Source: Paraspadella gotoi (taxonomy: Eukaryota; Animalia; Chaetognatha). From it: a stretch of DNA of 64,000 nt. Numbering within the stretch: position 1 is the stretch's first letter; each line of letters opens with the position of its first letter. The stretch covers positions 930,437 to 994,436 of the forward strand of contig JBJCIZ010000028.1 of the NCBI GenBank assembly GCA_051294375.1, written 5' to 3'. Of the stretch, positions 27,750 to 54,165 are shown piece by piece. The notes under the pieces were generated by a model, which saw only the letters and a list, made by a program, of their open reading frames with translations, was not told where the DNA came from and did no database searches. Both the position numbers and the translations under genes were made by a program.

Positions 27750-28065
27750 AAGAGAGATAGAGAGACAAGACAGATTAAAAACGATATCTTCACTTTCCGA
27801 ATTCTTTGGAGGTTGTGCCTTTTTATATCTTTACCTTTTTTTTCTCAAATTTTCTTACACTGCCACTCAAAATGTGATCGGTTTATTTTACCAAAATTTT
27901 TCTCTTCTGTTCGAACTGGGTTTTTTTGATTATCAATCAAAATCTATAGTTTTTTTTTACACCTTACAGTTGATTCACTAACATTGAATCAATTTACTTC
28001 GAAAAACCCTGTAGACATTCTACAGCGCGTTTTTTCCCCAGGGGAATGATCCACTGGCTCCCACG

Positions 28066-30246
28066 ATGGCGTTGAAATCTAGAACGACGGGGCGAAGCTT
28101 CGCTCGATTCTATCGGCAGGACGCGGCTCTGCAATACGGCGCCGGCGCCGTAGGGCAGCGCTTCGTCGATCTGCGGAGCGACACTGGCGAGTTTGAAAAT
28201 GGGGTTGGGATGGATTTGGGATGAATAAATTATTTACTTATTTGTTTATTTAGATATTTAGATATTGTGGACGCAACAAGTTTCAGAGTAAGAACTCGTT
28301 GCGTCCACAATATATATTTTTTTTTGTTTATTTGTTTATTTATTTATTCGCTTAGTTATTTAGTCGTTTATTTGTTTATTTAAAATTTTGTATTAATGAA
28401 TCTATTTCCTCCCAACAAACCAAACCAAACCTCCTCCTCCAGTGACTCGTCCGTCGGCCTCGATGCGGGCGTCGATGGCGGCGGCGGAAGTCGGCGACGA
28501 CGTCTACGGCGAAGACCCGACGGTGCAGCGGCTGCAGCGGAAAGCCGCAGCCTTCTTCGGCAAAGAGGCCGCGCTCTTCGTCCCGACCGGTGAGTTTTTT
28601 GCGTCGAAGGGGATGATAAGAGCGGGGGTTCCCTTTGTCCCTGAGATTCGATCATGTTTCATTGGCAGAGAGAGAGAGAGAGAAAGAGAGAGTTTGAGTG
28701 TGTGCGTGCATGTGTGTGTGTATATCATTAGCCTGCTTCCATTTCGATTACGATACCGCTGAAGGCACAGTGTAACTGTTAGTAAGTAATTGGTGACAAA
28801 ATTTGGTTTATTTCTCCTCATCTTTCCAAATCTCTTCATCATGTGGCTGTCGCCACTAGCGTCAGTTGATAAGATGGCGTTGACCGGAAACAAGAATTGA
28901 CGTTGGCGTTCGTCAATTGGCAAAATCAGTTTATTTAATTGTTTATCAATAAAAACAATCATTTTATCAGTTATGTTATTTTTGACTTTTATATCTTTTG
29001 TTTTTAATGAATGACGAATGATTAGCCTCTGGTCGTCTGTCCGTTGGTTTTTCATATATTATTGATTAACTAACTTACCAAAAGTTATTAATATTTCATA
29101 CGTATCCGAATTCGAAAGGTAATTTATAGAAATCGATCCGACCACGACATGCAGATAGCATATTACAGAATTTTACAAGAGGAGCGAAGTATGCATCGGA
29201 GTCTCCAACGGCGCCCACGAATCAGGGCGTCAAGCGGACGGCGCCTTCGATGTCCGCACGAATTTTATCCCCGACATTTATTCTTGTATCTTTCAAGTCC
29301 GCCCTTTCCCCTCCAACGTCTCCCACCTCTTTCTCCCTCTTACTTACCTCATGACCTGACCACACCCACTTGGATTTTAAAAACTAAAAGGTACGATGAG
29401 CAACTTGATCGCCGTCATGTCCCACTGTCGCTCGCGGGGCGAAGAGATAATCGTCGGTCACAAGTCTCACCTCTATCTCTACGAACAAGGCGGCGCCGCT
29501 CAGATCGCCGGCGTCCATCCGCGCGCCGTCCGGAACCGCGAGGACGGCACGTTGGATCTGGAGGAAGTGAGAGCTGCCGTCAGGGAAGACGATCCGCACT
29601 ATCCCAGGTTAATTGTATGTTTGGTTAACATTTGTCACCTTTTTTCGTTTCTATCGAAAAACGTTGTCATGGTTACTTCTTTCGTCGTAGTTTTCTATCA
29701 GGTCGGAAATCTGGGGTGAGATGGGAGAGGCACGTTTAATAAGCTTTAATATCACTTGTTACCACGTACCGGATTAATTAATCAATGAGACAATGAAAGA
29801 AATCTCCTTCTGTTTTCTGGCCATCGATCGCTTCGTGATTTTTTTCAATTTTCCTTTCCGTTTTTCTCGGCGCCGGAATCCGGAACTTCCTTGGTTCCGG
29901 CCGTTCAGAGAAAACGGACGGATCAGCTCTCGCGGAAAGAGAAATCCTTTTTAAATTAAGCGACTTCAGGCGGTTCTGATTTCAACACTTGCGATCACGG
30001 CAATATGCAAATTAATTTTTTTTTCGTTTCGAATTTGAATAGATTCCCCTTTGACGATTTAGAAATTTTTTGATATTGTAAGGTAAAAAAACATATCCAA
30101 TAGCATTACTGTGGTTTCCTTGGGGAGTGGGGTCAAACATTGAGTTTTAAATTTTTCTCCGAATAAGACGAGAAGATTGAAGAAAGCTCTCGCGCGTAAG
30201 ATTGATCTCATCGTCATACCTCAACTTTTTCCGGTGAATCGCGTGT

Positions 30247-30298
<52 letters not shown>

Positions 30299-30593
30299 CT
30301 CTTCTCTCTCTTCTCTCCTCTCTCCTCTCTTATCCTCATCTCTCTTCCTCAACGGCCAAGACGCCCATTCGGCCAGATCACCGCCTCCTCTGCTCTGGAG
30401 AACACTCACAACGCCTGCGGCGGCCGCGTCCTCCCACGGCGCTTCTTGGCGAGGCGGCGGCGGTGGCGCGCGAGGCCGGACTACGCGTTCACTTGACGGA
30501 GCAGAGACTCTTCAACGCGTTGGCCGAATACGAGGAGGCACGCTCCGTCGTGGCGAGGCACTTTGACCCATCAGCATCTGCTTGTCAAAGGGT

Positions 30594-30650
<57 letters not shown>

Positions 30651-31718
30651 TTTGTTTGAAAATCGCTTCTCCAGCGTTATTTTTATGCGAGTTTAGAGCA
30701 AGAGCGAGAAAGAGAAAGAGAGATGGAGAAGGAAGGAGAGAAAGAGGGTACGAGAGTAAACAAAAAAATCTAGCAAGCAAGAAAGAAATAAACGATACGA
30801 ATATATCAATTAATCACGTAAGCAATTAACTAGTTTCTTACCTTCATGGCCTTTATTGCTTTATTGCTATCGTTTTATCAAAATCATTTTTTTCCCCCAT
30901 TTGTTATTTGTATCAAATTTTTCAGTTAAAGTTCTTTGTTGAATGTTCAATCGCTAGTTTGTATCCTCTCTTCTCGCCCACCCCTACCCCCCTTCCACCA
31001 CGTCTATCCACCACTCTATCCACCAAGGCCTCGGCGCCCCCGTGGGTTCCCTCCTCATCGAGCGACGCGGATCTCGTCTCCTTCGGCCTTCGACTCCGCA
31101 AGGTCTTGGGCGGCGGAATGCGGCAGGCGGGGGTCGTCGCCGCAGCGGGGGAGATCGCCTTCGACGCCGGACCCGAGAGGCTCGTCGAGGATCATCGAAA
31201 CGCCAAGGTGGGGGAGGGCTTTGGAGGGGGGGTCTTGGCTCGAGGAAGAGTCGATCGGCGACCGCAAATTGTCTTTTCGTTGGGCTTTGTTTTTAATGGG
31301 CATTGGCTCAGGAGGACTCGCCATTAGACCGATCTCCCTCTTCCTCTCCCTCTTGCCGGCAACCCCGCCAAGCCTGATTTCCAATGCTGGCGAGCAAAGC
31401 GAATATTGTTCATTATTCAATTCTAAATTAAAGAAAATTTGCAGCCTCCTTCTGCACAGTGCCTACTTATAGTTTCTGTCGATTCAACCTCCAGATCATC
31501 GCCTCGCCGTCGCTTCTCTCTCTTCCCCTCTCCTCACCATCGATCCTCGATCCGTCGAGTCCAACATCGTCATCTGCAAAGTGAACAAGTCGCTCGTCAC
31601 TCCGGCAGAGATCTCTGCGCGACTCGAAGCCGTCTCGGGACCCGACGAGGTTTCCTTGTTTGCTTTTTTCTGTCGCTGTTTCGCTCTTTCTAATTGCTGT
31701 CTAGATCTCTATTGTCAC

Positions 31719-31789
<71 letters not shown>

Positions 31790-32212
31790 GCTTATCTCTC
31801 TCTGTGAGTGTGTCCCTTTTTCCTCTTCTACTTCTGTTTCTCTTTTCTTTCCTTTCTTTATTTCTCACTCCCACTTTCTTTCTTCCCCTCCCTCTCTCCC
31901 TCACAACAATCCTCACACCCATTGTGGTTCATTTTCAAAATGAGATTCTTCATATCTTTTGATACGTTTTTTCATAGGAGTCTTATTTTACTAAATAATT
32001 CAGCCATAGGGGTTTGATTAATAATTTGAAGTTTTCCAATTAATATTCAAAGATTTCATCTCCAGCTGGCCGTCCTCATCAGCGGTATGTCGGCCACCGA
32101 CGTCCGCTTCGTGACCCACGTGGACGTCTCTCGCGAAGACGTCGCCGCCGCCGCGGAAAAGATTAAACGCGTCGTCCGCCAGCTGGAGAAAGAGAAGAAG
32201 GTCGGGGGATGA
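28066..32212 (+). CDS. Low-specificity L-threonine aldolase (PLP-dependent, THA1/GLY1 family)
   Basis: Exons 28066-28186, 28443-28589, 29391-29607, ~30378-30591, 31028-31207, ~31495-31649, 32065-32212. Motifs [50 protein letters not shown] (PLP lysine), [14 protein letters not shown]. Local indels are corrected by the other copies. Confidence 0.93.
28262..28313. repeat. Intronic 52-nt hairpin
   Basis: atattgtggacgcaac (28262-28277) is the exact reverse complement of 28298-28313; the stem extends to ~21 bp with one mismatch. Confidence 0.85.
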
Positions 32213-32697
32213 AATTATTGGATCTATTTGGACCCATATGGACCCTTTTGGACCCTTTTCTCGCGCGAGCCTTTAATTCCCCGATTACGTTGTGTCAGCA
32301 AAGGAAGAAGAGGTCGTCTTAACAATCCTCTTTTACAAAATCTTGGCTAATTACTTTCGTACGTTTTTTTACTCGTTGATTTTTAAATTATTACTTGGCT
32401 TATGAATGTTTTAATCATTGCTTAATTTAAAAAAAAAGATTTTCTCACAAATTACAACGATATTTTTTATCGTTATATCTCTTGCGAGGTATCAAGTTAT
32501 CAGTTGTTAAATACTCTGTCGTAATTCATTGTGATTTTGTTTTCAGACTCTCTCCCTCTCTCCCATTCATGGTTAAGCGATATTTCGAAAAAAAAAGGAA
32601 AAACAATTCCCCCTAACATACAATATTTAAAAAAAAACAAAAAAAACAACAGTTTTAAATTAATGATCGAGCGTCGACTTTAAAAAAAAAAAGAAGG

Positions 32698-35042
32698 ATG
32701 AAGATCTTCTGTCACCCTTCTTCTCCGAATTCTTTGAAACTGGTGATCGCCCGCGAGATCGGCGCCGTATCTCGCGCCGCGCCGGAGGTGGCGCTCGAGT
32801 CGGTTCACCCGGCGTCGCGCATCGTGCCTTACCTCAGAGAACCCCGGCTGCCGATTTAGAACTCGACGATGGGCAGGTGAGGTTATGTTAAAATGTTAAA
32901 TGAATGAAGTGGTTGCACTCTTTGTATTTTAACTGAATCAAATAATTTCAAGGCTGATAAAATGTGAAAATAATTTATAACCGGGAAATTTGGTTTCACG
33001 GACTAAGTTTTAAAATCGTATCTAATTTTTTAAAAGTTTTGACTCTTTGTCAATAAATACTTTAAATCGCGATTAAAAATGTTAATAATTTTTTCGATCA
33101 TTGAAAAAAAAAAAAAGAAAACTTTAAGGCGGACCAAAGCTCAGTTTCGCAACTTACAAATTGAATTCTGGAATCACTTTTTTCCTGCCCCTCCAGTTTC
33201 TCTTCTGCGAGAACGCGGCCTGCGCCTACTTGTTCCGGAAGTCGGGCGAGGCGCCGCTTGACAGAGAGGCCGAGGCTCAACTGGACTTTTGGTTGGAGTG
33301 GGAGGCAAACGACGTTGAGGAAAAGCTTGGACGATGGTGAGGGTTGTTGAGATATACTTTTAAAAATAATGTTTCTCTCTCTCTCTCCTCTTTCGGTTTT
33401 ATTCTTAGTCAGTAGTCACCCCCTTCCCCGATTCAAGGATGTCTTCACCCCCCCCTCCCCCCATATTTAATCCCCCCTCCCCCCATAATTAATCCCCCCC
33501 CCACTTTCCAGCCGCCACACTCCCCGCCCTCCTAACCCGGCTGGACTCTGCTCTCTCCTCCACCCACCTCGTCCCTTCCTCCGGCCTCACCGCCGCCGAC
33601 GTCGTCATTTGGGTCACTCTACTTCCGGTTCTCGGCGCCGCCGGAGACGATTCCGCCGCCGGACGCCGCTTGGAAAATCTCGATCGGTGGTTTCGAAGGC
33701 TGGAAGCTCAACCCGCGTTTCGGGTGAGGCTGGGAAAGAAGATAGAGAGAGAGAGATTTGCGACCAACTAACATCTCATTTGCATATTGTAGTAATTTGA
33801 TTAAATTCAAATTATATAAGTCTTTTGAAAATGTTAATTTAGGATGAATGTTACTATATAAAGAGTTTTATTTGTTAGGTGGTTTTTATGCGTATTTGGC
33901 TTTTCTTGCATTAGTAATCGAAATATATTTTAAAAACCTTTTAGCGTTTGATTTTAGTTATTTAAATAAATAAACGATATCGAAACTATGCGCATTGATA
34001 AGAGTTATTTTATTGTGTCAAGCAATTGATGTAATACATAGTTGTTCCTTGTTATTTCTTATTAATAATTTCCATCAGCAATCAATGTTAATTTCAATAA
34101 TGACATCAATATAATAATCTCATCAGATCGCGATTGATAAGTTATCGTCGGCGCCTCGACCTTCCCGACCGTACAACGTCCTCGAGGGAAGTTTGAGGAG
34201 GATCGAGAGAAGACGACGACAAAAACGACGACGAAGACGACTGCAACTGGCGGTAGGGTCGCTCCACGACGGCGGAAGTCGTTTTAATTTCATTTCGTTG
34301 TCGTTTCGCTTTCAGGCCAAAAAGTCAACTCTAACGAAAACCACGACCCTAGAGCGGCGGAGGAAGCCAAGTTCGAACTGACACCAGTGACCCCCGGTAA
34401 CTAACTTTCGAATACAAAGATTAAACATTGAACGAACGTTTAAAAAGAATTCCCAAACCCCTTTCGAAAGAGCGCGCGGATTCGGTGTTGGCCTCGTGGC
34501 AACCGACCTGCAGTCACCCCGATCCTCCGGCACCGACGCCGTTGAAGACTCGCGTCCACCCGATCCTGCCGGAGAAGGGAAAGAGGAACATTCTCATCAC
34601 GTCCGCTTTGCCTTACGTCAACAACGTGCCTCACTTGGGGAACATTATCGGTAAGTTGGGGGGGGAGATGGAAATGAGGATTGGGGAGAGAAGGGGGGAG
34701 GAGTTCGGGGAATTTGAAAAAAGATTGGAGATCGTTAAAAGTTTGTCACGATGGCTGCGGTTACGTAAAATCCTTTGATCTCATTTGCATATCGACGCGT
34801 TTGCAAGTTTTTTTTTTATACAAATTTATACAAATTTTGTTTTGGAGAAGCGATTGTTTTTGTATTTTTGTTAAATCATGAAAATAACTTCGAAACCCAA
34901 GTAACCTAAATCATAGCCTTTGACGAACTTTGGGGGAAACATTTCGGTATATGTCGTTCAGTCTTTGTCTTCTCGCCTCATATCTTAGCAATAGTCGGAA
35001 TGCCCTATGTTGCAGTATCGGGAGTATATGAAATTGTCTCAA
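32698..35042 (+). other. Truncated redundant copy of the 5' part of methionyl-tRNA synthetase, ending at a 25-N gap
   Basis: Near-identical to 43075-45536; contains [18 protein letters not shown]. Confidence 0.8.
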
Positions 35043-36115: not shown

Positions 36116-38068
36116 TCTCCGTCGACTACCGCCTCGCGCCCGGAGCACCTCTACCCGCGGGTCTCGACGACGTGAGCTCCGTCTACAAGTTCCTCGTCGA
36201 ACACGCCGCCAGCTACTTGATCGACGTGGAGAGGATCGTCGTCGGTGGAGACTCCGCTGGAGGTTGATGGGGGAGAGGAGTAGAGCGGATTTCGATTCGT
36301 TGGTGGATGGTAGGGGGATGTGTGTGTGTAGATAAGGTGCTTAAAACAGGCTGCGTATTGTAATACTTCTCACAGCCATATAAATAGGGTCGAGCATTTG
36401 AGAACCAAGCTTGGCAGGTCGCTACGACTCCCTCAAAACTGTCGTCGTCACGCTTATCGAAAGGGCTGGAATCGATTCGTCATTAAACCGTTGCCTTTTG
36501 GCCTCTTGGCCTTTTGGCCTCCATGAAACAAAGTGTCTCTAATTGCGGACGAACTTATGGGAAGAGAGTCAGAGGACCGGATTGAGAAGATTGATTTGCT
36601 ATGTGAGCCAAGCTTCGAATAAGTGTTGAATGGAAATGCAGGGGGGGGAGCATCTTGTTTTTTTCCCCGCGGGTTAATCTACGTTACTTTTTTTTTATTT
36701 CTGTAAATGGGGCTTTTTCAATTATCTCGACAGGAAATTTAGCGGCGGCTTTGTGCCTCAAACTCCGCGACGAAACGCGCGACGCCGCGCGGACGACGCG
36801 CTGCCCGTGCCTAAACTGCAGGTAAATAACGTCGAATTAATCTAAAATCAAATCATTGAAATCCAGTCTAATCAAAACTATCCATATGTAATCATCAAAA
36901 ATCAATTGATTAAAATCGATAGAAATCAAATCAACTTATCGAGTCAATCGAACTCGATCAAATCAAAATCAATGAAAATTAAACATCCAAATCAAATCGA
37001 ATTGATTATAATTATCAAATCAAATTAATTAAAATCAACCGAATCGAAGAAAAATCAATCCATCCCGACCTCTAAACCTCTAAACTTCCCATTCAGGTCC
37101 TGATTTACCCCGGCCTCCAATCGGCAGATTTCTCCACGCCCTCCTATTTGTCTTCCTCCGTGATGCTGTCCGAGAAGTCGTGACCGCGTATTTGGCCAAT
37201 TATCTCACCGGGTCGGAGGACGGTTACGAGGGAATCTTGAGGAGGAGGCACGTCTCGACCCGAAATGGTAAGAACGGAATCGTTATTAATGTCCCTCGAA
37301 ATATATAACCGAATGTCCTTCTTAAAATTTGTTTTTTTTTTAAAGTTGGACGGCCGCAATGATTATAAAATAAGTTTAGAAGGTCTATGGTTCAAGTTAT
37401 TTGGTGGAATATTACTTAGCCTTAACTTTTATTTATACAAAGTAATTTTCTAAAAAATGTCATTATTAATATTAATTACTGAAAATATAATATTTGATAA
37501 GCTGTTGCAAATTGTTCCAGAAACCTCGAAAAATCAACGTGAATCATACTTCGAAACGTAGACAAATTATACATATAATATATATATATATATATTATAA
37601 TTATTTTCTAAATTTATACACAGCTACATGCAAATAAGATTTGTTAACATGCATTTTTTTCTCTCCTCATCCACCCAGGCGTCGCCTGAGCAAAAAAACA
37701 CCCTCAATCCCACTTGATCCCGGAAACTCTCAAGGCCGGCTACGTCCCGGCCGACGACGAGACACTACGACCCGGAATTCGCCGCCAATGTTAGAGAGGG
37801 CGGTGAAAGACCCTTTACATCTCGCCGCTTCTGGCCGAGAGTGTCGAAAACCTCCCCGCCGCTTACTCATACGCCTGTCAGTACGATCATCTCAGGGACG
37901 ACGCCATATTTTAGCGCGCGGCGCCTCCGCGCAGCAGCCAGTACCCGCGGAGCTGCGCGTCGTATGCGAGGAGCGTGGCACGGGATCATGTACAAGACGA
38001 ACTTGGTCAAATGAAAGGCGGCGAGTCATTTCCGACGATTGACGCAATATTTTGGCGGAGAACGTTTG
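36116..38068 (+). other. Partial redundant copy of esterase exons 3-6
   Basis: Begins mid-exon at SVDYRLAP; frameshifted relative to 25811-27749. Confidence 0.8.
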
Positions 38069-38391
38069 AAAGAGAGATAGAGAGACAAGACAGATTAAAA
38101 ACGATATTCTTCACTTTCCGATTCTTTGGAGGTTGTGCCTTTTTATATCTTTACCTTTTTTTTCTCAAATTTTCTTAACACTGCCACTCAAAATTGTGAT
38201 CGGTTTTATTTTACCAAAATTTTTCTTCTGTTCGAACTGGGTTTTTTTGATTATTCAATCAAAATCTATAGTTTTTTTTTATCACGCTTACAGTTGATGT
38301 CACTAACATTGAATCAATTTACTGTCGAAAAACCCTGTAGACATTCTACAGCGCGTTTTTTCCCCAGGGGAATGATCCACTGGCTCCCACG

Positions 38392-40604
38392 ATGGCGTTG
38401 AAATCTAGAAGACGGGGCGAAGCTTCGCTCGATTCTATCGGCAGGACGCGGCTCTGCAATACGGCGCCGGCGCCGTAGGGCAGCGCTTCGTCAATCTGCG
38501 GAGCGACACTGGCGAGTTTGAAAATGGGGTTGGGATGGATTTGGGATGAATAAATATTTACTTATTTGTTTATTTAGATATTTAGATATTGTGGACGCAA
38601 CAAGTTTCAGAAGTAAGAACTCGTTGCGTCCAAATATATATTTTTTTTTGTTTATTTGTTTATTATTTATTCGCTTTAGTATTTAGTCGTTTATTTGTTT
38701 ATTTAAAATTTTGTATTAATGAATCTACTTCCTCCAACAAACCAAACCAAACCAACTCCTCCTCCAGTGACTCGTCCGTCGGCCTCGATGCGGGCGTCGA
38801 TGGCGGCGGCGGAAGTCGCGACCGACGTCTACGGCGAAGACCCGACGGTGCAGCGGCTGCAGCGGAAAGCCGCAGCCGTCTTCGGCAAAGAGGCCGCGCT
38901 CTTCGTCCCGAGCCGGTGGAGTTTTTTGCGTCGAAGGGGGATGATAAGAGCGGGGGTTCCCTTTGTCCTGAGATTCGATCATGTTTCATTGGCAGAGAGA
39001 GAGAGAGAGAAAGAGAGAGTTTGAGTGTGTGCGTGCATGTTCGTGTGCTGTAATATACATGTAGGCCTGCTTCATTTCGATTACGATACCGCTGAAGCAA
39101 CAGGTGTAACTGTTTAGTAAAGTAATTGGTGACAAAATTTGGTTTATTTCTCCTCATCTTTCCAAATCTCTTCATCATGTGGCTGTCGCCACTAGCGTTC
39201 AGTTGATCAGATGGCTGTTGACCGGAAACAGAGTTGACGTTGCGCGTTCGTCATTGGAAAATCAGTTTATTTAATTGTTTATCATAAAAACAATCATTTT
39301 ATCAGTTATGTTATTTTTGACTTTTATATCTTTTGTTTTTAATTGAATGACGAATGATTAGCCTCTGGTCGTCTGTCCGTTGGTTTTTTGCATATATTAT
39401 TGATTAACTAACTACCAAAAGTTATTAATATTTCATACGTATCCGAGATTCGAAAGGTAATTTATAGAAAATCGATACCGACCACGACATGCAGATAGCA
39501 TATTACAGAATTTTACAAAGAGAGCGAAGTATGCATCGGAGTCTCCAACGGCGCCCAGCGAATTCAGGAGCGTCAAGCGGACGGCGCCTTCGATGTCGCG
39601 CACGAATTTTATCCCGACATTTATTCTTGTATCTTTTCAGTCCGCCTTTCCCCTCCAACGTTTCCCACCTCTTTTCTCCCTCTTACTTACCTCATGACGC
39701 TGACACACACACCCACTTGGATTTTAAAAACTAAAAAGGTAAGCGATGAGCACACCTGATCGCCGTCATGTCCCACTGTCGCTCGCGGGGACAAGAGATA
39801 ATCGTCGGTCACAAGTCTCACCTCTATCTCTAACGAACAAGGCGGCGCCGCTCAGATCGCCGGTCCATCCGCGCGCCGTCCGGAACGCCGAGGACGGCAC
39901 GTTGGATCTGGAGGAAGTGAGAGCTGCCGTCAGGGAAGACGGATCCGCACTATCCCAGGTTAATTGTATGTTTGGTTAACATTTGTCACCTTTTTCGTTT
40001 CTATCGAAAAACGTTGTCATGGTTACTTCTTTCGTCTGTAGTTTTCTATCAGGTCGGAAATCTGGGTGAGATGGGAGTAGGCCACGTTTATAAGCTTTAA
40101 TATCACTTGTTACCACGTACCGGATTAATTTAATCAATGAGACAATGAAAGAAATCTCCTTCTGTTTTCTGGCCATCGATCGCTTCGTGATTTTTTTCAA
40201 TTTTCCTTTCCGTTTTTTCTCGGCGCCGGAATCCGAAACTTCCTTGGTTCCGGCCGTTCAGAGAAACGGACGGATCAGCTCTCGCGGAAAGAGAAATCCT
40301 TTTTAAATTAAGCGACTTCAGGCGGTTCTGATTTCAAACACTTGCGATCACGGCAATATGCAAATTTATTTTTTTTTCGTTTCGAATTTGAATAGATTCC
40401 CCTTTGACGATTTAAGAAATTTTTTGATATTGTAAGGTAAAAAAAACATATCCAATAGCATTACTGTGGTTTTCCTTGGGGAGTGGGGTCAAACATTGAG
40501 TTTTAAATTTTTCTCCGAATAAGACGAGAAGATTGAAGAAAGCTCTCGCCGCGTAAGATTGATCTCATCGTCATAACCTCAACTTTTTCCGGTGAATCGC
40601 GTGT

Positions 40605-40673
<69 letters not shown>

Positions 40674-40946
40674 TCTTCCTTCTTCTCGCTCTCTCTCTCC
40701 AAACGGCCAAAGACCCCATTCGCGCCAGATCCCGCCTCCTCTGCTGGAGAAACACTCACAACGCCTGCGGCCGGCCGCGTCCTCTCGCACCGGCGTTCTT
40801 GGCGGAGGCGGCGGCGGTGGCGCGCGAGGCCGGACTACGCGTTCACTTGGACGGAGCGAGACTCTTCAACGCGTTGCCGAATACGAGGAGGACGCTCCGT
40901 CGGTGGCGAGGCACTTTGACTCATCAGCATCTGCTTGTCAAAGGGT

Positions 40947-41004
<58 letters not shown>

Positions 41005-42102
41005 CGTTGTTTGAAAATCGCTTCTCCAGCGTTATTTTTTATTGCGAGTTTAGAGCAAGAGCGAGAAAGAGAAAGAGAGATGGAGAAGGAAGGAGAGAAA
41101 GAGGGTACGAGAGTAAACAAAAAAATCTAGCAAGTCAAGAAAGAAATAAACGATTACGAATATATCAATTAAGTCACGTAAGCAATTAACTAGTTTCTTA
41201 CCTCATGGCCTTTATGTGCTTTATTGCTATCGTTTTATCAAATCATTTTTTTCCCCCATTTGTTATTTGTATCAAAATTTTTTCAGTTAAAGTTCTTTGT
41301 TGAATGTTCAATCGCTAGTTTGTATCCTCTCTTCTCGCCCACCCCTACCCCCCTTCCACCACTCTATCCACCACTCTATCCACCAAGGCCTCGGCGCCCC
41401 CGTGGGTTCCCTCCTCATCGGCGACGCGGATCTCGTCTCCTTCGGCCTTCGACTCCGCAAGGTCTTGGGCGGCGGAATGCGGCAGGCGGGGGTCGTCGCC
41501 GCAGCGGGGAGATCGCCTTCGACGCCGGACCCGAGAGGCTCGTCGAGGATCATCGAAACGCCAAGGTGGGGGGAGGGCTTTGGAGGGGGTCTTGGACTCG
41601 AGGGAAGAGTCGATCGGCGACCGCAAATTGTCTTTTCGGTTGGGCTTTGTTTTTAATGGGCATTGGCTCAGGAGGACCTCGCCAATAGACCGATCTCCCT
41701 CTTCCTCTCCCTCTTGCCGGCAACCCCGCCAAGCCTGATTTCCAATGCTGGCGAGCAAAGCGAATATTGTTCATTATTCAATTCTAAATTAAAGAAAATT
41801 TGCAGCCTCCTTCTGCACAGTGCCTACTTAAGTTTCTGGTGATTTACCTCCAGATCATCGCCTACGCCGTCGCTTCTCTCTCTTCCCCTCTCCTCACCAT
41901 CGATCCTCGATCCGTCGAGTCCAACATCGTCATCTGCAAAGTGAACAAGTCGCTCGTCACTCCGGCAGAGATCTCTGCGCGACTCGAAGCCGTCTCGGGA
42001 CCCGACGAGGTTTCCTTGTTTGCTTTTTTCTGTCGCTGTTTCGCTCTTTCTTTTGCTGTCTAGATCTCTATTGTCAACTCGCTGTCATCTCTCTCTCTCT
42101 CT

Positions 42103-42153
<51 letters not shown>

Positions 42154-42584
42154 TTTCTCTCTCTGTGAGTGTGTCCCATTTTCCCTCTCTCTTTGTTTCT
42201 CTTTTCTTTCTTTCTTTTTTTCTCACTCCAACTTTCTTTCTTCCCCTCCCTCTCTCCCTCACAACAAATCCTCACACCCATTGTGGTTCATTTCAAATGA
42301 GTTCTTCATATCTTTTGATACGTTTTTCATAGGAGTCTTATTTTACTATTTCAGCCATAGGGTTTGATAATAATTTAGTTTTCCAATTAATATTCAAAGA
42401 TTTCATCTCCAGCTGGCCGTCCTCATCAGCGGTATGTCGGCCACCGACGTCCGCTTCGTGACCCACGTGGNNNNNNNNNNNNNNNNNNNNNNNNNACGTC
42501 TCTCGCGAAGACGTCGTCGCCGCCGCGGAAAAGATCAAACGCGTCGTCCGCCAGCTGGAGAAAGAGAAGAAGGTCGGGGGATAA
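38392..42584 (+). other. Redundant copy of the threonine aldolase gene (indel-rich)
   Basis: Same exon structure as 28066-32212; stop codon is TAA instead of TGA. Confidence 0.8.
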
Positions 42585-43074
42585 AATTATTGGATCTATT
42601 TGGACCCATATGGACCCTTTTGGACCCTTTTCTCGCGCGAGCCTTTAATTCCCCCGATTACGTTGTGTCAGCAAAGGAAGAAGAGGGTCGTCTTAACAAT
42701 CCTCTTTTACAAAATCTTGGCTAATTACTTTCGTACGTTTTTTTACTCGTTGATTTTTTAAATTATTACTTGGCTTATGAATGTTTTAATCATTGCTTAA
42801 TTTAAAAAAAAAAGATTTTCTCACAAATTACAACGATATTTTTTATTGTTATATCTCTTGCGAGGTATCAAGTTATCAGTTGTTAAATACTCTGTCGTAA
42901 TTCATTGTTGATTTTGTTTCAGACTCTCTCCCTCTCTCCCATTCATGGTTAAGCGATATTTCGAAAAAAAAAAGGAAAAACAATTCCCCCTAACATACAA
43001 TATTTAAAAAAAAACAAAAAAAACAACAGTTTTAAATTAATGATCGAGCGTCGACTTTAAAAAAAAAAAGAAGG

Positions 43075-46000
43075 ATGAAGATCTTCTGTCACCCTTCTTC
43101 TCCGAATTCTTTGAAACTGGTGATCGCCCGCGAGATCGGCGCCGTATCTCGCGCCGCGCCGGAGGTGGCGCTCGAGTCGGTTCACCCGGCGTCGCGCATC
43201 GTGCCTTACCTCAGAGAACCCCGGCTGCCGATTTTAGAACTCGACGATGGGCAGGTGAGGTTATGTTAAAATGTTAAATGAATTTTAAATGTATTTTAAC
43301 TGAATCAGATAATTTCAAGGCTGATAAAATGTGAAAATAATTTATAACCGGGAAATTTGGTTTCACGGACTAAGTTTTAAAATCGTATCTAATTTTTAAA
43401 AGTTTTGACTCTTTGTCAATAAAATACTTTAAATCGCGATTAAAAATGTTAATAAATTTTTCGATCATTGAAAAAAAAAAAAGAAAACTTTAAGGCGGAC
43501 CAAAGCTCAGTTTCGCAACTTACAAATTGAATTCTGGAATCACTTTTTTCCTGCCCCTCCAGTTTCTCTTCTGCGAGAACGCGGCCTGCGCCTACTTGTT
43601 CCGGAAGTCGGGCGAGGCGCCGCTTGACAGAGAGGCCGAGGCTCAACTGGACTTTTGGTTGGAGTGGGAGGCAACGACGTTGAGGAAAAGCTTGGACGAT
43701 GGTGAGGGTTGTTGAGATATACTTTTAAAAATAATGTTTCTCTCTCTCTCTCCTTTTTTCTTTCGGTTTTATTCTTAGTCAGTAGTCACCCCCTTCCATC
43801 AGGATGTCTTCAACCTTCTCACCCCCCCCCTCCCCCCATAATTAATCCCCCCCCACTTTCCAGCCGCCACACTCCCCGCCCTCCTAACCGGCTGGACTCT
43901 GCTCTCTCCTCCACCCACCTCGTCCCTTCCTCCGGCCTCACCGCCGCCGACGTCGTCATTTGGGTCACTCTACTTCCGGTTCTCGGCGCCGCCGGAGACG
44001 ATTCCGCCGCCGGACGCCGCTTGGAAAATCTCGATCGGTGGTTTCGAAGGCTGGAAGCTCAACCCGCGTTTCGGGTGAGGCTGGGAAAGAAAGATAGAGA
44101 GAGAGAGATTTGCGACCAACTAACATCTCATTTGCATATTGTAGTAATTTGATTAAATTCAAATTATATAAGTCTTTTGAAAATGTTAATTTAGGATGAA
44201 TGTTACTATATAAAGAGTTTTATTTGTTAGGTGGTTTTTATGCGTATTTGGCTTTTCTTGGCATTAGTAATCGAAATATATTTTAAAAACCTTTTTAGCG
44301 TTTGATTTTAGTTAATTTAAATAAATAGACGATATCGAAACTATGCGCATATGATAAGAGTTATTTTATTGTGTCAAGCAAAGGATGTAATACATAGTTG
44401 TGCCTTGTTATTTCTTATTAATAATTTCCATCAGCAANNNNNNNNNNTTAATTTAAATAAATAAACGATATCGAAACTATGCGCATTGATAAGAGTTATT
44501 TTATTGTGTCAAGCAATTGATGTAATACATAGTTGTTCCTTGTTATTTCTTATTAATAATTTCCATCAGCAATCAATGTTAATTTCAATAATGACATCAA
44601 TATAATAATCTCATCAGATCGCGATTGATAAGTTATCGTCGGCGCCTCGACCTTCCCGACCGTACAACGTCCTCGAGGGGAAGTTTGAGGAGGATCGAGA
44701 GAAGACGACGACAAAAACGACGACGAAGACGACTGCAACTGGCGGTAGGGTCGCTCCACGACGGCGGAAGTCGTTTTAATTTCATTTCGTTGTCGTTTCG
44801 CTTTCAGGCCAAAAAGTCAACTCTAACGAAACCACGACCCCTAGAGCGGCGGAGGAAGCCAAGTTCGAACTGACACCAGTGACCCCCGGTAACTAACTTT
44901 CGAATACAAAGATTAAACATTGAACGAACGTTTAAAAAGAATTCCCAAACCCCTTTCGAAAGAGCGCGCGGATTCGGTGTTGGCCTCGTGGCAACCGACC
45001 TGCAGTCACCCCGATCCTCCGGCACCGACGCCGTTGAAGACTCGCGTCCACCCGATCCTGCCGGAGAAGGGAAAGAGGAACATTCTCATCACGTCCGCTT
45101 TGCCTTACGTCAACAACGTGCCTCACTTGGGGAACATTATCGGTAAGTTGGGGGGGGAGATGGAAATGAGGATTGGGGAGAGAAGGGGGGAGGAGTTCGG
45201 GGAATTTGAAAAAAGATTTGGAGATCGTTAAAAGTTTGTCACGATGGCTGCGGTTACGTAAAATCCTTTGATCTCATTTGCATATCGACGCGTTTGCAAG
45301 TTTTTTTTTTATACAAATTTATACAAATTTTGTTTTGGAGAAGCGATTGTTTTTGTATTTTTGTTAAATCATGAAAAATAACTTCGAAACCCAAGTAACC
45401 TAAATCATAGCCTTTGACGAACTTTGGGGGAAACATTTCGGTATATGTCGTTCAGTCTTTGTCTTCTCGCCTCATATCTTAGCAATAGTCGGAATGCCCT
45501 ATGTTGCAGTATCGGGAGTATATGAAATTGTCTCAACATCCCTTGCCCACCACCCTCAACTCCTTCAGGCTGCGTCCTCAGCGCCGACGTCTTTTCCCGC
45601 TATTGTCGACTCACCAACGAAAACGTCTTGTTCGTCTGCGGGACGGACGAGTACGGCACGGCCACGGAGACCAAGGCGTTGGAGGAGGGTAAGTCATCAC
45701 CGGCTCTTGGGTCAGGGCGGAAGAGAACTCACCTTTCTCTCTCTCTCAAGGTCTGACCCCTCGCGAGATTTGCGACAAGTACAACGCCATCCACGCCTCC
45801 ATCTACGATTGGTTCAACGTGGGATTCGATCACTTTGGACGGACGACGACGGAGAAACAGACGGACATCGCGCAGGACATCTTTTGGAGGCTTCACGGGG
45901 AAGGACTCGTGCTCAAGGAGGCCGTGGATCAGCTTCATTGCGGAAGATGCGATAAGTGAGGATGTGGAAATATATGTAACGTTATATTAAACGAAACTCT

Positions 46001-49451: not shown

Positions 49452-49486
<35 letters not shown>

Positions 49487-50326
49487 TGCTGACAAGTTGA
49501 GGAAAAGTAGAAGGTTGGCAGAGAGAGAGTGAAAAGAAATCACGGTCATGGGACATGAGTTTAAGTTGGGGCCTCGGATAATGATTAAATTGTGGCAGCA
49601 AGACTTAAAGCTGCCTCACTGCTGTCCGTCCTCAGCCTCGTCTCAATGGCTGAGCAGGCTAAATCATCTCATTCCATCCGTGCGTCCCGGGTTCAATCCC
49701 TGGGTATCCCGGTTCTGGCTTAAATGTGACGGTGCCGGTATAAACATGCCAGTGACAGGAGGCGGTCACTGAGGGTCCGCAGCCCCTACGCCAGTTGGTG
49801 AGATACCCCGCGCCCCGGGTATCACAGGTTATCCTCCCGTTGCCATAAAATATTATTTAAATACATTTTTTATCAATTAATTTTAATTATTACATTCCCC
49901 CCTTTCCAGTCCAAATCCTCACCGAAACCCGAAATCGAGGCTGCCGTCTCCCTCCTCTTGGATCTCAAACGGAAACTGGCCGCCATTTCCGGCGAACCCT
50001 TGAACTCTAAGGAAGACAAAAAGAAAGCTAAATCCGGCGCCGGAAATCTCGTCAAATCTCCGGCGTCGAAACCGGAAGCGTCTCCAGCGGAGCCGACGCC
50101 GACAGACGCCGCCGAAGCTCAACGCCTTTCCCTTCTCGTCCAGGCTCAGGGCGATCTCGTCCGCGGACTCAAGGCGCGCCGGGATCCGGTCGCGGAGAAG
50201 GCGGAGGTCGACGCCGCCGTCGCCGAGTTGCTCGAACTCAAGCGGAAGATGTCGTTGGCGTCGGGGGAGACGGAGAAGCCCGTCGGCGGGGGAGGAAAAA
50301 AGGGGAAGAGGAACGAAAGTATATAA
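43075..50326 (+). CDS. MARS1: Methionyl-tRNA synthetase, cytoplasmic (GST-like N-terminus, two C-terminal WHEP-like repeats)
   Basis: About 15 exons. Motifs [18 protein letters not shown] (HIGH), [22 protein letters not shown]...[51 protein letters not shown] (KMSKS), [12 protein letters not shown], and QG.lVR.LK...aV..LL.LK twice. One frameshift at 47740. Confidence 0.96.
49635..49850 (+). mobile_element. tRNA-headed SINE-like element carrying a twister ribozyme
   Basis: A box TGGCTGAGCAGG at 49647-49658 and B box GGTTCAATCCC at 49690-49700; structured body, 3' hairpin gataccc/gggtatc and AT-rich tail; lies in intron 49452-49909. Confidence 0.7.
49715..49794 (+). ncRNA. Twister ribozyme, type-P5 permutation
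   Basis: P5 CTGGC/GCCAG; P2 ATGT/ACAT; GA-CGG; TAA cleavage motif at 49741-49743; GC-C; P3 AGTGAC/GTCACT; G; P4 AGGG/CCCT; loop TCCGCAGC. Pseudoknots are T1 CCG/CGG and T2 GC/GC. Confidence 0.8.
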
Positions 50327-50689: not shown

Positions 50690-52564
50690 ATGGCTGTGAG
50701 ACGTTCGACGGGAATCGTTTCCCGCCTTTTTTGTGGCTTTCGAAATGAATCTGGATTTAGTATTCGTTTCTTAGAAAAAGCAAAAAATCATTTTTCCATC
50801 TCCGTCGACAGCGGAATTGTCAAAACGCCCGTTAATGTTAACGAAAATGTCAATAAACTTATTCCTGACCTTAACTTGACCTCACCTCCTCCTCATTTCG
50901 ACCTTACCCTTTCTCCGGACGACGATCCTCGATCCATTCTCTCTTTCCTTCCCCTTTTTCGTCCCGACTTTTCTTCTTCCTCGATCGTTCGTCCATTGTC
51001 CGGCAGCGCCACCAACGCCCTCTTCGTCGTCGTCAAAACCGGCGCCTCTCTCGTCGTCCGCATCAACTGTCCCGACACCGTCGTCGACCGGAAACTGGAG
51101 ATCGCCAACTGGCGCCTTCTTGCGCGTCGCGGGTTGGCGCCTTCGCTTGTAGCCACTTTCGATAACGGAGTCGTTTACGAGTTTGTCGAGGGTCGGACGT
51201 TGACGAGGGACGATTTGAAGGATCTTTCAGTCACGCGATCGATCGCCTTCGAGATGGCAAAATTGCACAGAATTCGACCAGAGGTCTCGTTGAAAGTCGA
51301 ATCGGTTTTGTGGTCGTGGATGGACGACTACATCTCGCTCATTCATTCCGATCCGTGTTCGGACGAGATCTCCTCAGCGGAGAGTCGTCTCGCAATTCCC
51401 TCTCCTCAAACCCTTCGTAGAGACGTGGCCGATTTGCGTGGAAGGGTCGAGTCTTTCTCGTCTCCCGATTCCCCCTTCGTTTTTTGTCACAACGACCTCA
51501 ATCTCGACAACGTGGTTTTCCGAGAAATAGATTCGAGGTCGCGATTCATCGATTGGGAATTCGGAGGCTGGAACTGGGCGGCTTTTGACGTCGCTAACCA
51601 TTTTAACGAGTCTTACAGGTTAGGGTGCGCGAGGTGAGAAAAGAGTGGAAAAGATATTATGTGGAAGACGAAGCCGCGAGTGGATCGGATCGAGTGGGTG
51701 GGTGAGACGCCCCGTCCCGCTTTAACTTGTGTGAATATCAGCAGGGCGCGNNNNNNNNNNTGAATCAGCAGGGCGCGAACTCGAGGCTTTTGGTTTGGGA
51801 AGAGCTCGTGACGTTGTGACGTCGCGTTACATCATTTTTTTTGTGAATAGGATTTTTTTCACAGGTTAAAAGTACCTTTATTTTAAAAGTCTTCGAAACA
51901 ACATTAACTTAGGTTTCATATTTTTATTTTATTGAGGGCAGGTTAAGTTATTTTAGGCGATTGAAAACTAAAATTTATATAGCGCCGGAACGAGTTCATG
52001 ACCGCAAAATTTTACATTAATTTACGTGTATGTAGTCCAAGTTACAACAATAAAAAGTCTAATATAAAATTTGACTTTTATTATTTATTATTCATACATC
52101 CCGATTCTCGAACTTCATTCTTCATCATTCTCGTTCCGACGTCATTCCAATTCTCAAGACTCCTGTTGCAGACGGATTTCTCAGAAAAGCTCCGCGCCCA
52201 TGACGACGATGAAAGTTCTTTGACCCTCGTCGCCAAATTGTGTCCTTCGAGAAATGAAAAGTTGGACTGGATTCGTTTTTATCTCAAGTCCCGTCGCTTT
52301 TTCGACTCTTCCAAGTGGTCGGCCGATTCCGAAGGCGACGACGATGTTCTCTCCGAAGCATCGCTCATCTCCTCCCTTCGGGTCTCCGACGAGGATGCGG
52401 AGTCGTTTATGGGAGATGTCGAGCTACTGGACGAGGCGTCCCACTTGTTCTGGAGCCTGTGGGCTTTCTCTCAGTCTCGATCATCGAAAATAGGTGCCTC
52501 GTTCGGGAGGTACGCCGCGTTGAGGTACGGAAGAAGCAAAGCGCTTCGGGATAAGTTTTCGTAA
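50690..52564 (+). CDS. Ethanolamine/choline kinase-like protein, paralogue A (2 exons, N-terminal extension)
   Basis: Exons 50690-51618 and 52159-52564 (phase-2 GT-AG). Motifs LSGSATNALF, TFDNGVVYEFVEG, FCHNDLNLDN (Brenner motif), FIDWEFGGWNWAAFDVANHF, SHLFWSLWA. Confidence 0.88.
51765..51815 (-). mobile_element. tRNA-derived SINE head remnant
   Basis: Minus strand ctcttcccaaaccaaaagcctcgAGTTCGCGCCct; resembles the heads at 2305 and 55555. Confidence 0.45.
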
Positions 52565-53052: not shown

Positions 53053-54165
53053 ATGTCTTCAAGTGAGACCAAATGCAATGAGCCTCATTTCAACTTAACC
53101 CTTTCCTCCGATCCCGATTTCGAATCCATCACCAATCTCCTCCGCCTCTTTCCTCTCGACTTCACTTCTCCCTCCACGACCGTCTCCAAATTGTCCGGCG
53201 GCACCAGCAACGCCCTCTTCCGCGTCTCCAACGACGGCGCCTCCGTCGTGGTTCGCGTCAACGGCGAAGACGCCGTCGTCGACAGACAGCGGGAGATCCT
53301 GGACCGGCGCCGATTGACGCGCCACGGAATGACGCCGCCCTTTCTCGCCACTTTCGACAACGGCGTCGTTTACGATTTCGTCGAGGGTCGAACGTTGAAG
53401 AGAGAGGATTTAAGGGACGGAATGATCGCGGGTCTCGTCGCTTTCCAGATGTCGAAGCTGCATTCGATTCGCCCTCGGAAATCTGAGAAAGTGGAATCGG
53501 TTCTCTGGCGATGGATGGAAGATTTCGTGTCTCTGATTCCATCCACGGGTCCAGTCTCGAACGTCATTCCGTCTCGCGAGACTCTGCGGGCCGAAGTCGA
53601 ATCCCTTCGCCGCAGAGCCGAGTCTTTCACCTCCTCCTCATCCTCTCTCGTCTTTTGCCACAACGACATCAGCTGCGACAACTCGATCTTCGACGAGAAG
53701 CTCGCCCAGGTGCGCTTCATCGATTGGGAATTCGGCGGATGGAATCGAGCGGCGTTCGACGTCGCCAATCACTTTACAGAATTCGTCGGCGGGTGGAGCG
53801 ACGAAGGGGAAGGGGAGGGATTCCAGATCGATTTTTCTTTGTGTCCGAATAAAAAGGAAAAGACACAATGGATTCGCTTTTACCTTCGATGCTGTTCCTT
53901 TATGAACTCCTTTAAATCAACTGTGGACGACGAACTCTCTCGACAACCCGTTTTCGATATTGCCGCGATTTCCGCTCAACGAATTTCCGAGGAAGAAGTC
54001 GAGGCGTTTTTAAAGGAGGTGAATGTGATGGAGGAAGCCTCGCATCTCTTTTGGAGTCTTTGGGCTTTGAATCAGGCGAGGGTGTCGAGCATCGGCGTCT
54101 CGTTCGGTAGATACGCCGACTTGCGGTACGAGCAGAGCAAGAAAATCGGGGCAATTAGTGACTGA
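53053..54165 (+). CDS. Ethanolamine/choline kinase-like protein, paralogue B (intronless, 370 aa)
   Basis: Single ORF with LSGGTSNALF, FCHNDISCDN, FIDWEFGGWNRAAFDVANHFTEF and SHLFWSLWAL. Confidence 0.92.
   Translation: MSSSETKCNEPHFNLTLSSDPDFESITNLLRLFPLDFTSPSTTVSKLSGGTSNALFRVSNDGASVVVRVNGEDAVVDRQREILDRRRLTRHGMTPPFLATFDNGVVYDFVEGRTLKREDLRDGMIAGLVAFQMSKLHSIRPRKSEKVESVLWRWMEDFVSLIPSTGPVSNVIPSRETLRAEVESLRRRAESFTSSSSSLVFCHNDISCDNSIFDEKLAQVRFIDWEFGGWNRAAFDVANHFTEFVGGWSDEGEGEGFQIDFSLCPNKKEKTQWIRFYLRCCSFMNSFKSTVDDELSRQPVFDIAAISAQRISEEEVEAFLKEVNVMEEASHLFWSLWALNQARVSSIGVSFGRYADLRYEQSKKIGAISD

Follow-up and report, generated by a model that had tools for sequence, protein, structure and literature searches.

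The stretch of DNA analysed here (64,000 nt; hereafter the window) comes from the chaetognath Paraspadella gotoi and contains a gene for cytoplasmic methionyl-tRNA synthetase (MetRS), the last coding intron of which harbours a short repeated element (Table 1). The best named protein matches of this MetRS are those of a brachiopod (45%) and of beetles (45–50%), and a further search gave no match at E≤1e-30. A contig of the presumed RNA run X9 joins both exons around the intron (loose end at 49908), and the stop codon lies in the exon that follows. Together with the intron borders and the reading frame, this contig bears out the preliminary description, which had placed the element in sense orientation in the last MetRS intron. 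Contigs of runs X7, X4, X1 and X9 all cease to match the window at 50313, leaving 50314–50326 unmatched, and the loose end of X9 runs into an earlier stop; the MetRS C-terminus given by the window may be an assembly error or a rare allele. Directly after MetRS lie two tandem choline/ethanolamine kinase paralogues with long open frames (50690–51634 and 53053–54162). The window also contains an 8.4-kb tandem duplication (25811–34081 and 36116–44437; 95.6%) and a 1.1-kb duplication (33960–35042 and 44451–45536; 99.5%) that reaches into the MetRS 5' region. Both adjoin N gaps and are possibly haplotype or assembly duplications.

The extent of the element is seen in contigs from public sequencing runs of the same organism. 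Loose contig ends cluster at 49589–49591 and 49847–49848 (DNA runs X7, X4, X1 and X8), and the summed depth over 49591–49847 has a mean of about 3,700–8,600 times that of the flank in the four DNA runs, a ratio that does not equal copy number. The depth step and the loose ends replace the span of 49635–49850 proposed at first, while a depth thousands of times that of the flank agrees with the original view that the sequence belongs to a repeat family. An empty allele is present in run X7, where a contig joins 49586 to 49848 and skips 261 bases, with four letters fitting either side; the depth at this joint is 109.7, compared to 192.8 downstream. The insertion in the MetRS intron is polymorphic, with presence and absence both represented and a 4-bp duplication, the latter known from one locus in one of the five runs of the organism, among the joints listed.

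Table 1. Features of the element and of the MetRS intron that contains it (positions within the window)
Feature	Position	Strand	Basis or remark
Host intron, last coding intron of cytoplasmic MetRS	49452..49909	+	GT..AG, continuous reading frame
Target-site duplication, left copy AAAT	49587..49590	.	empty-allele joint and sequence
Complete element (257 bp), likely a solo Helenus-type TRIM LTR	49591..49847	+	depth step and loose ends
Left end TGTGGCAGC	49591..49599	+	four bivalve Helenus LTRs open with the same first 8 nt
tRNA-like head, D-arm and T-arm regions, acceptor stem lost	49640..49704	+	
A box TGGCT..CAGG, predicted Pol III internal promoter	49647..49658	+	fits Helenus TRGCY and YGG motifs
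B box GGTTCAATCCC in intact T-arm hairpin	49690..49700	+	
Type-P5 twister fold	49715..49794	+	motif inspection, descriptor scan and Rfam scan
Twister P5	49715-19/49790-94		
Twister P2	49724-27/49744-47		
Twister G-A	G49728-A49729		
Twister T1	49730-32/49777-79		CGG/CCG
Twister P1	49733-34/49739-40		2 bp (U-A, G-U)
Twister UAA	49741-43		
Twister T2	49748-49/49782-83		
Twister P3	49750-56/49765-71		
Twister P4	49772-75/49784-87		
Predicted self-cleavage site U/A	49741..49742	+	predicted by homology: U-A site of the UAA loop, PMC8501958
Hairpin 3' of the ribozyme	49798..49826	+	fold; z -1.26 for 49795-49850, not significant
Right end GTTGCCATA	49839..49847	+	imperfect inverted repeat of left end, 7/9
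Target-site duplication, right copy AAAT	49848..49851	.	empty-allele joint and sequence
T-run (>=4 T) in flank, would end Pol III transcript of solo copy	49866..49871	+	

The element starts with TGT and ends with CATA, its right end being TA as opposed to the usual CA, and it has no tail; the terminal TGCCATA recurs in another copy of the element (X9). No TTTT occurs inside the element, the first run of at least four T being found in the 3' flank. A leader precedes the promoter, the element beginning 56 nt before the A box and 49 nt before the tRNA-like head. The depth over 49602–49629 equals that of the rest of the element, and most copies keep about 45–50 nt upstream of the head. Pooled flank consensuses indirectly suggest a weak RTAY-like target (agreement 0.41–0.5). 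No second copy of the element was found within the 64-kb window, and a search of the window for either element end with up to three mismatches revealed no other place in a credible context. Neither an internal region nor a PBS or PPT was present in the pooled loose-end consensuses listed.

Some copies depart from this form. Divergent pieces covering 49590–49858 display 12–19 gap positions and in some cases reach 49858, which suggests an older subfamily with a deletion, and internal deletions occur in many single copies. Near-identical fragments of the element (49589–49805) were also found at a depth below 25, and without the MetRS flank, in three runs filed under other organism codes (X10, X11 and X12). 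Trace host DNA is the simplest reading of these fragments; they may also reflect transfer.

ARAGORN called 0 tRNA genes, so the tRNA-like head stands without a tRNA call. The first 8 nt of the head are those of the tRNA head of Helenus-3_CGi, and three bivalve Helenus tRNA heads share them, at LTR position 45 there and at position 50 here.

Downstream of the boxes, the P2, P4, T1 and T2 elements pair in the order of a type-P5 twister, as judged by motif inspection and by a descriptor. Both the UAA cleavage loop (49741–49743) and the catalytic G followed by A (49728–49729) are present. Every part named in the preliminary description (the two boxes, P5, P2, GA, T1, UAA, T2, the C49750–G49771 pair, P3, P4 and C49780) was found where it had been placed. 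The A of loop L4, at the A28 position, is absent and replaced by C49780, with no family variant listed there at the level of at least 1–3%. The descriptor, for which the P2, GA, T1, AA, T2, P3, P4 and L4 layout was required in full, was composed after the site had been seen, following general twister rules. Across both strands of the 64-kb window it gave a single match (49724–49787, with a P5 of 5 bp), and it gave 0 matches in 217 Mb of shuffled sequence, of which 170.8 Mb had been shuffled in blocks and 46.3 Mb at the composition of the element. This supports the original assignment, in which A and B boxes of tRNA type are followed by a type-P5 twister that is complete.

The same descriptor recognized 10 P1-type sites among 50 viral loci that had been fetched by the P4/L4 letters of the MetRS-intron site. 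Rfam assigned all four of the viral sites scanned to twister-P1 (E from 5e-10 to 1.2e-7). T1 and P4 of the MetRS-intron twister recur in viral twister-P1 matches, and its CGG/CCG T1 pairing is found in three of the four twisters scored by Rfam. The MetRS-intron site itself gave no match at E≤10 to Rfam twister-P5, the covariance model that had been proposed as a check. With twister-P1, a 111-nt scan aligned the part from UAA to P4 at 17.6 bits and an E value of only 0.13. At the gathering threshold the whole window yielded 0 hits, a null result that is uninformative because this threshold likewise misses four of four viral twisters with E≤1.2e-7. Plain folding did not favour the twister fold (z -0.37). 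When the nested twister fold was imposed as a constraint, its energy exceeded the free minimum by 3.8–6.1 kcal/mol across three contexts, in calculations that do not score pseudoknots.

Viral scans for cores in P5 order passed 2 of 109 candidates (A form) and 0 of 98 (C form) through the pairing filter, and both of the former were tandem P1-type twisters; these scans provided neither a second natural C at the A28 position nor an independent P5 control. On the viral contigs, two type-P1 twisters were observed head to tail at L145:39-138 and at L177:20-119, the junction reading as a P5-order twister, and loci L044 and L045 represent further twister-like sites on one viral contig. A metagenome scan for a B box with a twister core retrieved 31 loci, of which 0 were twister-like by eye and 0 matched the element by blastn. 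A covariance model derived from the viral loci (alignment A1) was dropped as circular, because the loci had been chosen by the P4/L4 letters of the MetRS site.

Two caveats had accompanied the original assignment. The shortness of P1 stands (2 bp), a helix reported as non-essential (PMC8501958, PMC5113685). The concern over C49780, the equivalent of A28 in the rice twister Osa-1-4, is largely gone, because the A28C single mutant keeps a relative activity of 1.00 (PMC5113685, supplementary matrix) in an assay with a 2-hour end point, which hides rate losses and gives values without the T1 combination of the MetRS site. The A28C value was read by column count, with the register checked against the G30 mutants (≤0.05), C31U (0.84) and A40C (0.08), whose values accord with the published text. 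In the A28C row of the matrix, mutants of G45 and A46 have values of 0.03–0.13 (PMC5113685).

Variation within the family was assessed by counting as common those variants that reach at least 1% of depth and at least four contigs in X8, or at least 3% in a DNA run. Of the 10 commonly varying sites, none falls within the 58 twister positions that are paired or belong to the core (P=0.034), and none within the 81 positions of the twister plus the boxes (P=0.006). The test was post hoc and excluded a decayed X11 contig, the copy-private site 49829 and three core variants whose share is about 3.5% in X9 and <0.6% in the DNA runs. In X8, T49733A occurs in 35 contigs (depth 1417), to which A49740T (24 contigs, depth 547) and A49740C (22 contigs, depth 716) taken together correspond. 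On sequence grounds, and with the phase inferred, T49733A together with A49740T is a compensatory change in P1 (U-A to A-U) in part of a subfamily, and A49740C, again in part of the subfamily, is a change predicted to break the P1 register.

The element most resembles the Helenus group (TRIMp3; Kojima 2024). Helenus elements are short and non-autonomous; each of their LTRs encloses A and B boxes derived from a tRNA, and their PBSs are common to Gypsy elements. Target-site duplications of 4 bp accompany them in animals, and the group has LTRs of up to 323 bp, solo forms and as many as 5,575 LTR copies (PMC10886601). Their LTRs consist of TGT, a leader, a tRNA-like part, often a T-run, and then ACA, although those of Helenus-6_SaGl and Helenus-16_PHor end in CATA and ATA, respectively (PMC10886601). 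The LTRs of Helenus-2_SyJa and Helenus-2_SyUm from Synergus wasps, given in the supplement of that paper, appear by eye to contain a type III hammerhead immediately downstream of the B box, with a GTC cut triplet, a CTGATGA core, GAAA, three helices and a long loop–loop pairing. Both are devoid of a T4 run, and the hammerhead is unannotated in the accessible text of PMC10886601. The 257-bp repeat probably represents a solo LTR left by a mini LTR retrotransposon of the Helenus type. It cannot be filed as Helenus before an internal region is seen, and the class of its ribozyme is not that of the retrozymes.

We propose that the element is a solo Helenus-type LTR and that, in a Pol III transcript with two LTRs, cleavage by the twister would release a unit-length RNA, which would probably be circularized and then copied and inserted by Gypsy proteins, a reading to which we give a probability of roughly 0.55. 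The boundaries, the high depth, the presence/absence polymorphism with its 4-bp duplication, the boxes and the layout of the twister are the observed parts of this explanation. Full-length master copies (LTR-PBS-internal-PPT-LTR) would reside elsewhere in the genome. Pol III would start near 49635–49640 in the upstream LTR and meet no T4 run inside the LTR, and in the resulting LTR-internal-LTR transcript the twister of each LTR would cut at U49741/A49742. By analogy with plant retrozymes, a host ligase would close the circle, a tRNA bound at the PBS would act as primer, and an LTR complete with leader and tRNA head would be regained as the reverse transcriptase travels round the circle. Gypsy integrase would then insert the cDNA with 4-bp duplications, and solo LTRs might arise from LTR–LTR recombination or from short cDNA. 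Removal of the tRNA head by cleavage, as originally put forward, would hold for solo copies only; in a two-LTR element the downstream LTR would resupply the head.

The MetRS copy would be a passenger: Pol III could produce from it an RNA of about 230 nt that is cut in two, but the copy could not propagate itself. An effect of an intronic ribozyme on its host mRNA has been reported for Cpeb3 (PMC10919898), and the copy described here could cut MetRS pre-mRNA. In X9 the element contigs have about 62 times the depth of the spliced MetRS contig; we make no claim on expression from this ratio, because the contigs give neither strand nor level.

Other explanations differ in how the element moves. 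Short fixed duplications combined with inverted TG-type ends point to an integrase or a transposase. One alternative is a MITE, a miniature DNA transposon bounded by 9-bp inverted ends and 4-bp duplications, which would have taken up a unit of tRNA head plus twister and would transpose as DNA. Its inverted ends, short fixed duplication, very high depth and uniform copy length, and the absence of an internal region from the sequences seen, all accord with such an origin. However, the inverted repeat extends to just 7 of 9 bp, the TGT start and the leader-plus-tRNA layout are those of Helenus LTRs, and DNA transposition gives no reason for keeping a promoter and a ribozyme; we consider a MITE improbable. 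By definition, a tRNA-derived SINE has its 5' end at the start of the tRNA-like head, an A-rich or simple-repeat tail and a longer, variable target-site duplication. The preliminary description took the element for a SINE with a twister. Such a SINE would depend on a LINE and its target-primed reverse transcription, with tandem transcripts perhaps serving as templates, like the Schistosoma hammerhead SINE; a SINE with Pol III and a hammerhead is indeed known in schistosomes (PMC6765202), and the internal boxes, the size, the high depth and a few single-locus tandem or back joints among the element contigs would be in keeping with it. Yet the 56-nt leader before the A box is retained by most copies, the copy starts do not coincide with the cut site, and there is no tail. 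The label is likely wrong, because copying of a Pol III transcript cannot restore the upstream leader, the tail is absent, and the inverted TG-type ends and the 4-bp duplication seen at one empty site are LTR-like; this origin is the least probable of those considered.

The remaining explanations accept the Helenus-type LTR and question what the twister does. It might serve as a leaky 3'-end former that replaces the T-run, the RNA staying linear and undergoing ordinary strand transfer; an uncut upstream LTR and a cut downstream LTR would leave about 100 nt of terminal redundancy. In many Helenus LTRs a T-run directly follows the B box (PMC10886601), while none is present here or in the Synergus hammerhead LTRs, and competing helices could make cutting partial. 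The yield of such a mechanism is nevertheless limited to p(1-p), and the ribozymes in plant retrozyme LTRs cut efficiently, giving rise to circles that accumulate and are thought to be copied by Gypsy proteins (PMC4918200, PMC12029980). Furthermore, fish Helenus LTRs possess neither a T4 run nor a ribozyme (PMC10886601), and because they work without both, a ribozyme is not required for an element of the Helenus kind and is not simply a substitute for the terminator. This role is unlikely, though it ranks above the other alternatives. The twister could also be a neutral or misfolded passenger, acquired for example from an RTE 5' end, where twisters are known to occur (PMC8501958, PMC7761336), or from a SINE. 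In a young family an intact core may merely reflect age, and the two-dimensional energy prefers other folds. Against such a passenger, common variants avoid the core and P1 displays the putative compensatory change, the RTE-linked twisters tabulated in PMC8501958 are P1-type, and a second ribozyme class, as seen by eye, occupies the same slot of the wasp Helenus; we hold this possibility to be as improbable as the MITE.

What eukaryotic twisters do biologically is largely unsettled, and the only association given in the accessible literature is with the 5' ends of RTE elements, which are of the non-LTR class. If the proposed reading is true, a twister in a Pol III-driven LTR would be a second and different role for them, and the element would join Helenus (a promoter, with no ribozyme described) with the plant retrozymes (a ribozyme, in plants, likely Pol II). 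The element is short, young and polymorphic, and so allows alleles to be compared with each other, both for replication through circles and for what an intronic ribozyme does to an essential gene. A broader view is more tentative, and we would place it somewhat below even odds: Helenus-type elements may have repeatedly placed a ribozyme behind a tRNA promoter (a P5 twister here, a type III hammerhead in Synergus), forming Pol III-driven animal LTR retrozymes, with the present family spreading via twister-made circular RNA. In that case no LTR retroelement based on a twister would have been known before this one, which would still be active and would place thousands of cleavage sites in host transcripts.

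No twister-bearing LTR element or SINE was found in the accessible open literature (including PMC7761336, PMC5680766, PMC6765202 and 10.64898/2026.07.22.740005), subscription papers, Repbase and Dfam being outside its scope; within the same scope, this is in line with the original remark that no described SINE was known to combine an internal Pol III promoter with a twister. The accessible text of PMC10886601 does not mention twisters and has the word 'ribozyme' only in one reference title. Twelve twister-core words searched across the accessible Helenus supplement, where line breaks can hide words, matched no LTR in a twister context. The combination of a tRNA-type promoter and a twister inside an LTR was not found in the accessible literature searched.

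Comparison with known elements places the MetRS-intron element closest to Helenus, with which it shares A and B boxes inside the (here putative) LTR (100–320 bp in Helenus) after a short leader, a TGT start, a 4-bp target-site duplication, the probable solo form and presumably a copy number in the thousands. It differs in the twister of about 80 nt after the B box, the lack of a T-run in the LTR and the right end TA, and is known here from the solo form. The Synergus Helenus-2 LTRs (about 275 bp) likewise have A and B boxes followed by an apparent self-cleaving motif and contain no T4 run, but their motif is a type III hammerhead as opposed to a twister, and the remaining sequence is dissimilar by eye. 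Cassandra and Ajax TRIMs also carry a Pol III promoter within the LTR; theirs is 5S-derived, with no ribozyme described in the accessible text, and the Ajax duplication is 5 bp (PMC10886601). The Schistosoma Perere-3 RTE variants resemble the element in having a twister with a weak P1 in an animal retroelement, whereas that twister is P1-type and begins a non-LTR element at its 5' end, where the target-site duplication adjoins the cut, and the one described here is P5-type, central and behind a promoter (PMC8501958). The Schistosoma hammerhead SINE (PMC6765202) is similar in being a short repeat of animals in which a ribozyme and a Pol III promoter occur together. However, this SINE and the animal non-LTR retrozymes carry type I hammerheads, occur as tandem repeats, are Penelope-linked and have no LTR, PBS or PPT (PMC6765202, PMC7761336, 10.64898/2026.07.22.740005), the absence of all three from animal retrozymes being stated in a review (PMC7761336). 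Plant LTR retrozymes, for one of which (NbRZ1) Pol II has been suggested (PMC12029980), bear hammerheads in LTRs of 300–400 bp and have 4-bp duplications and solo forms (PMC4918200). The MetRS-intron element matches them in the self-cleaving ribozyme motif inside the LTR, the 4-bp duplication, the probable solo LTR and a presumed dependence on Gypsy; it departs from them in its twister, its animal host and its somewhat shorter LTR of 257 bp, and circles, demonstrated for plant retrozymes, are a prediction for the present element. In the reading that we propose, the element is built like Helenus and would work like an LTR retrozyme.
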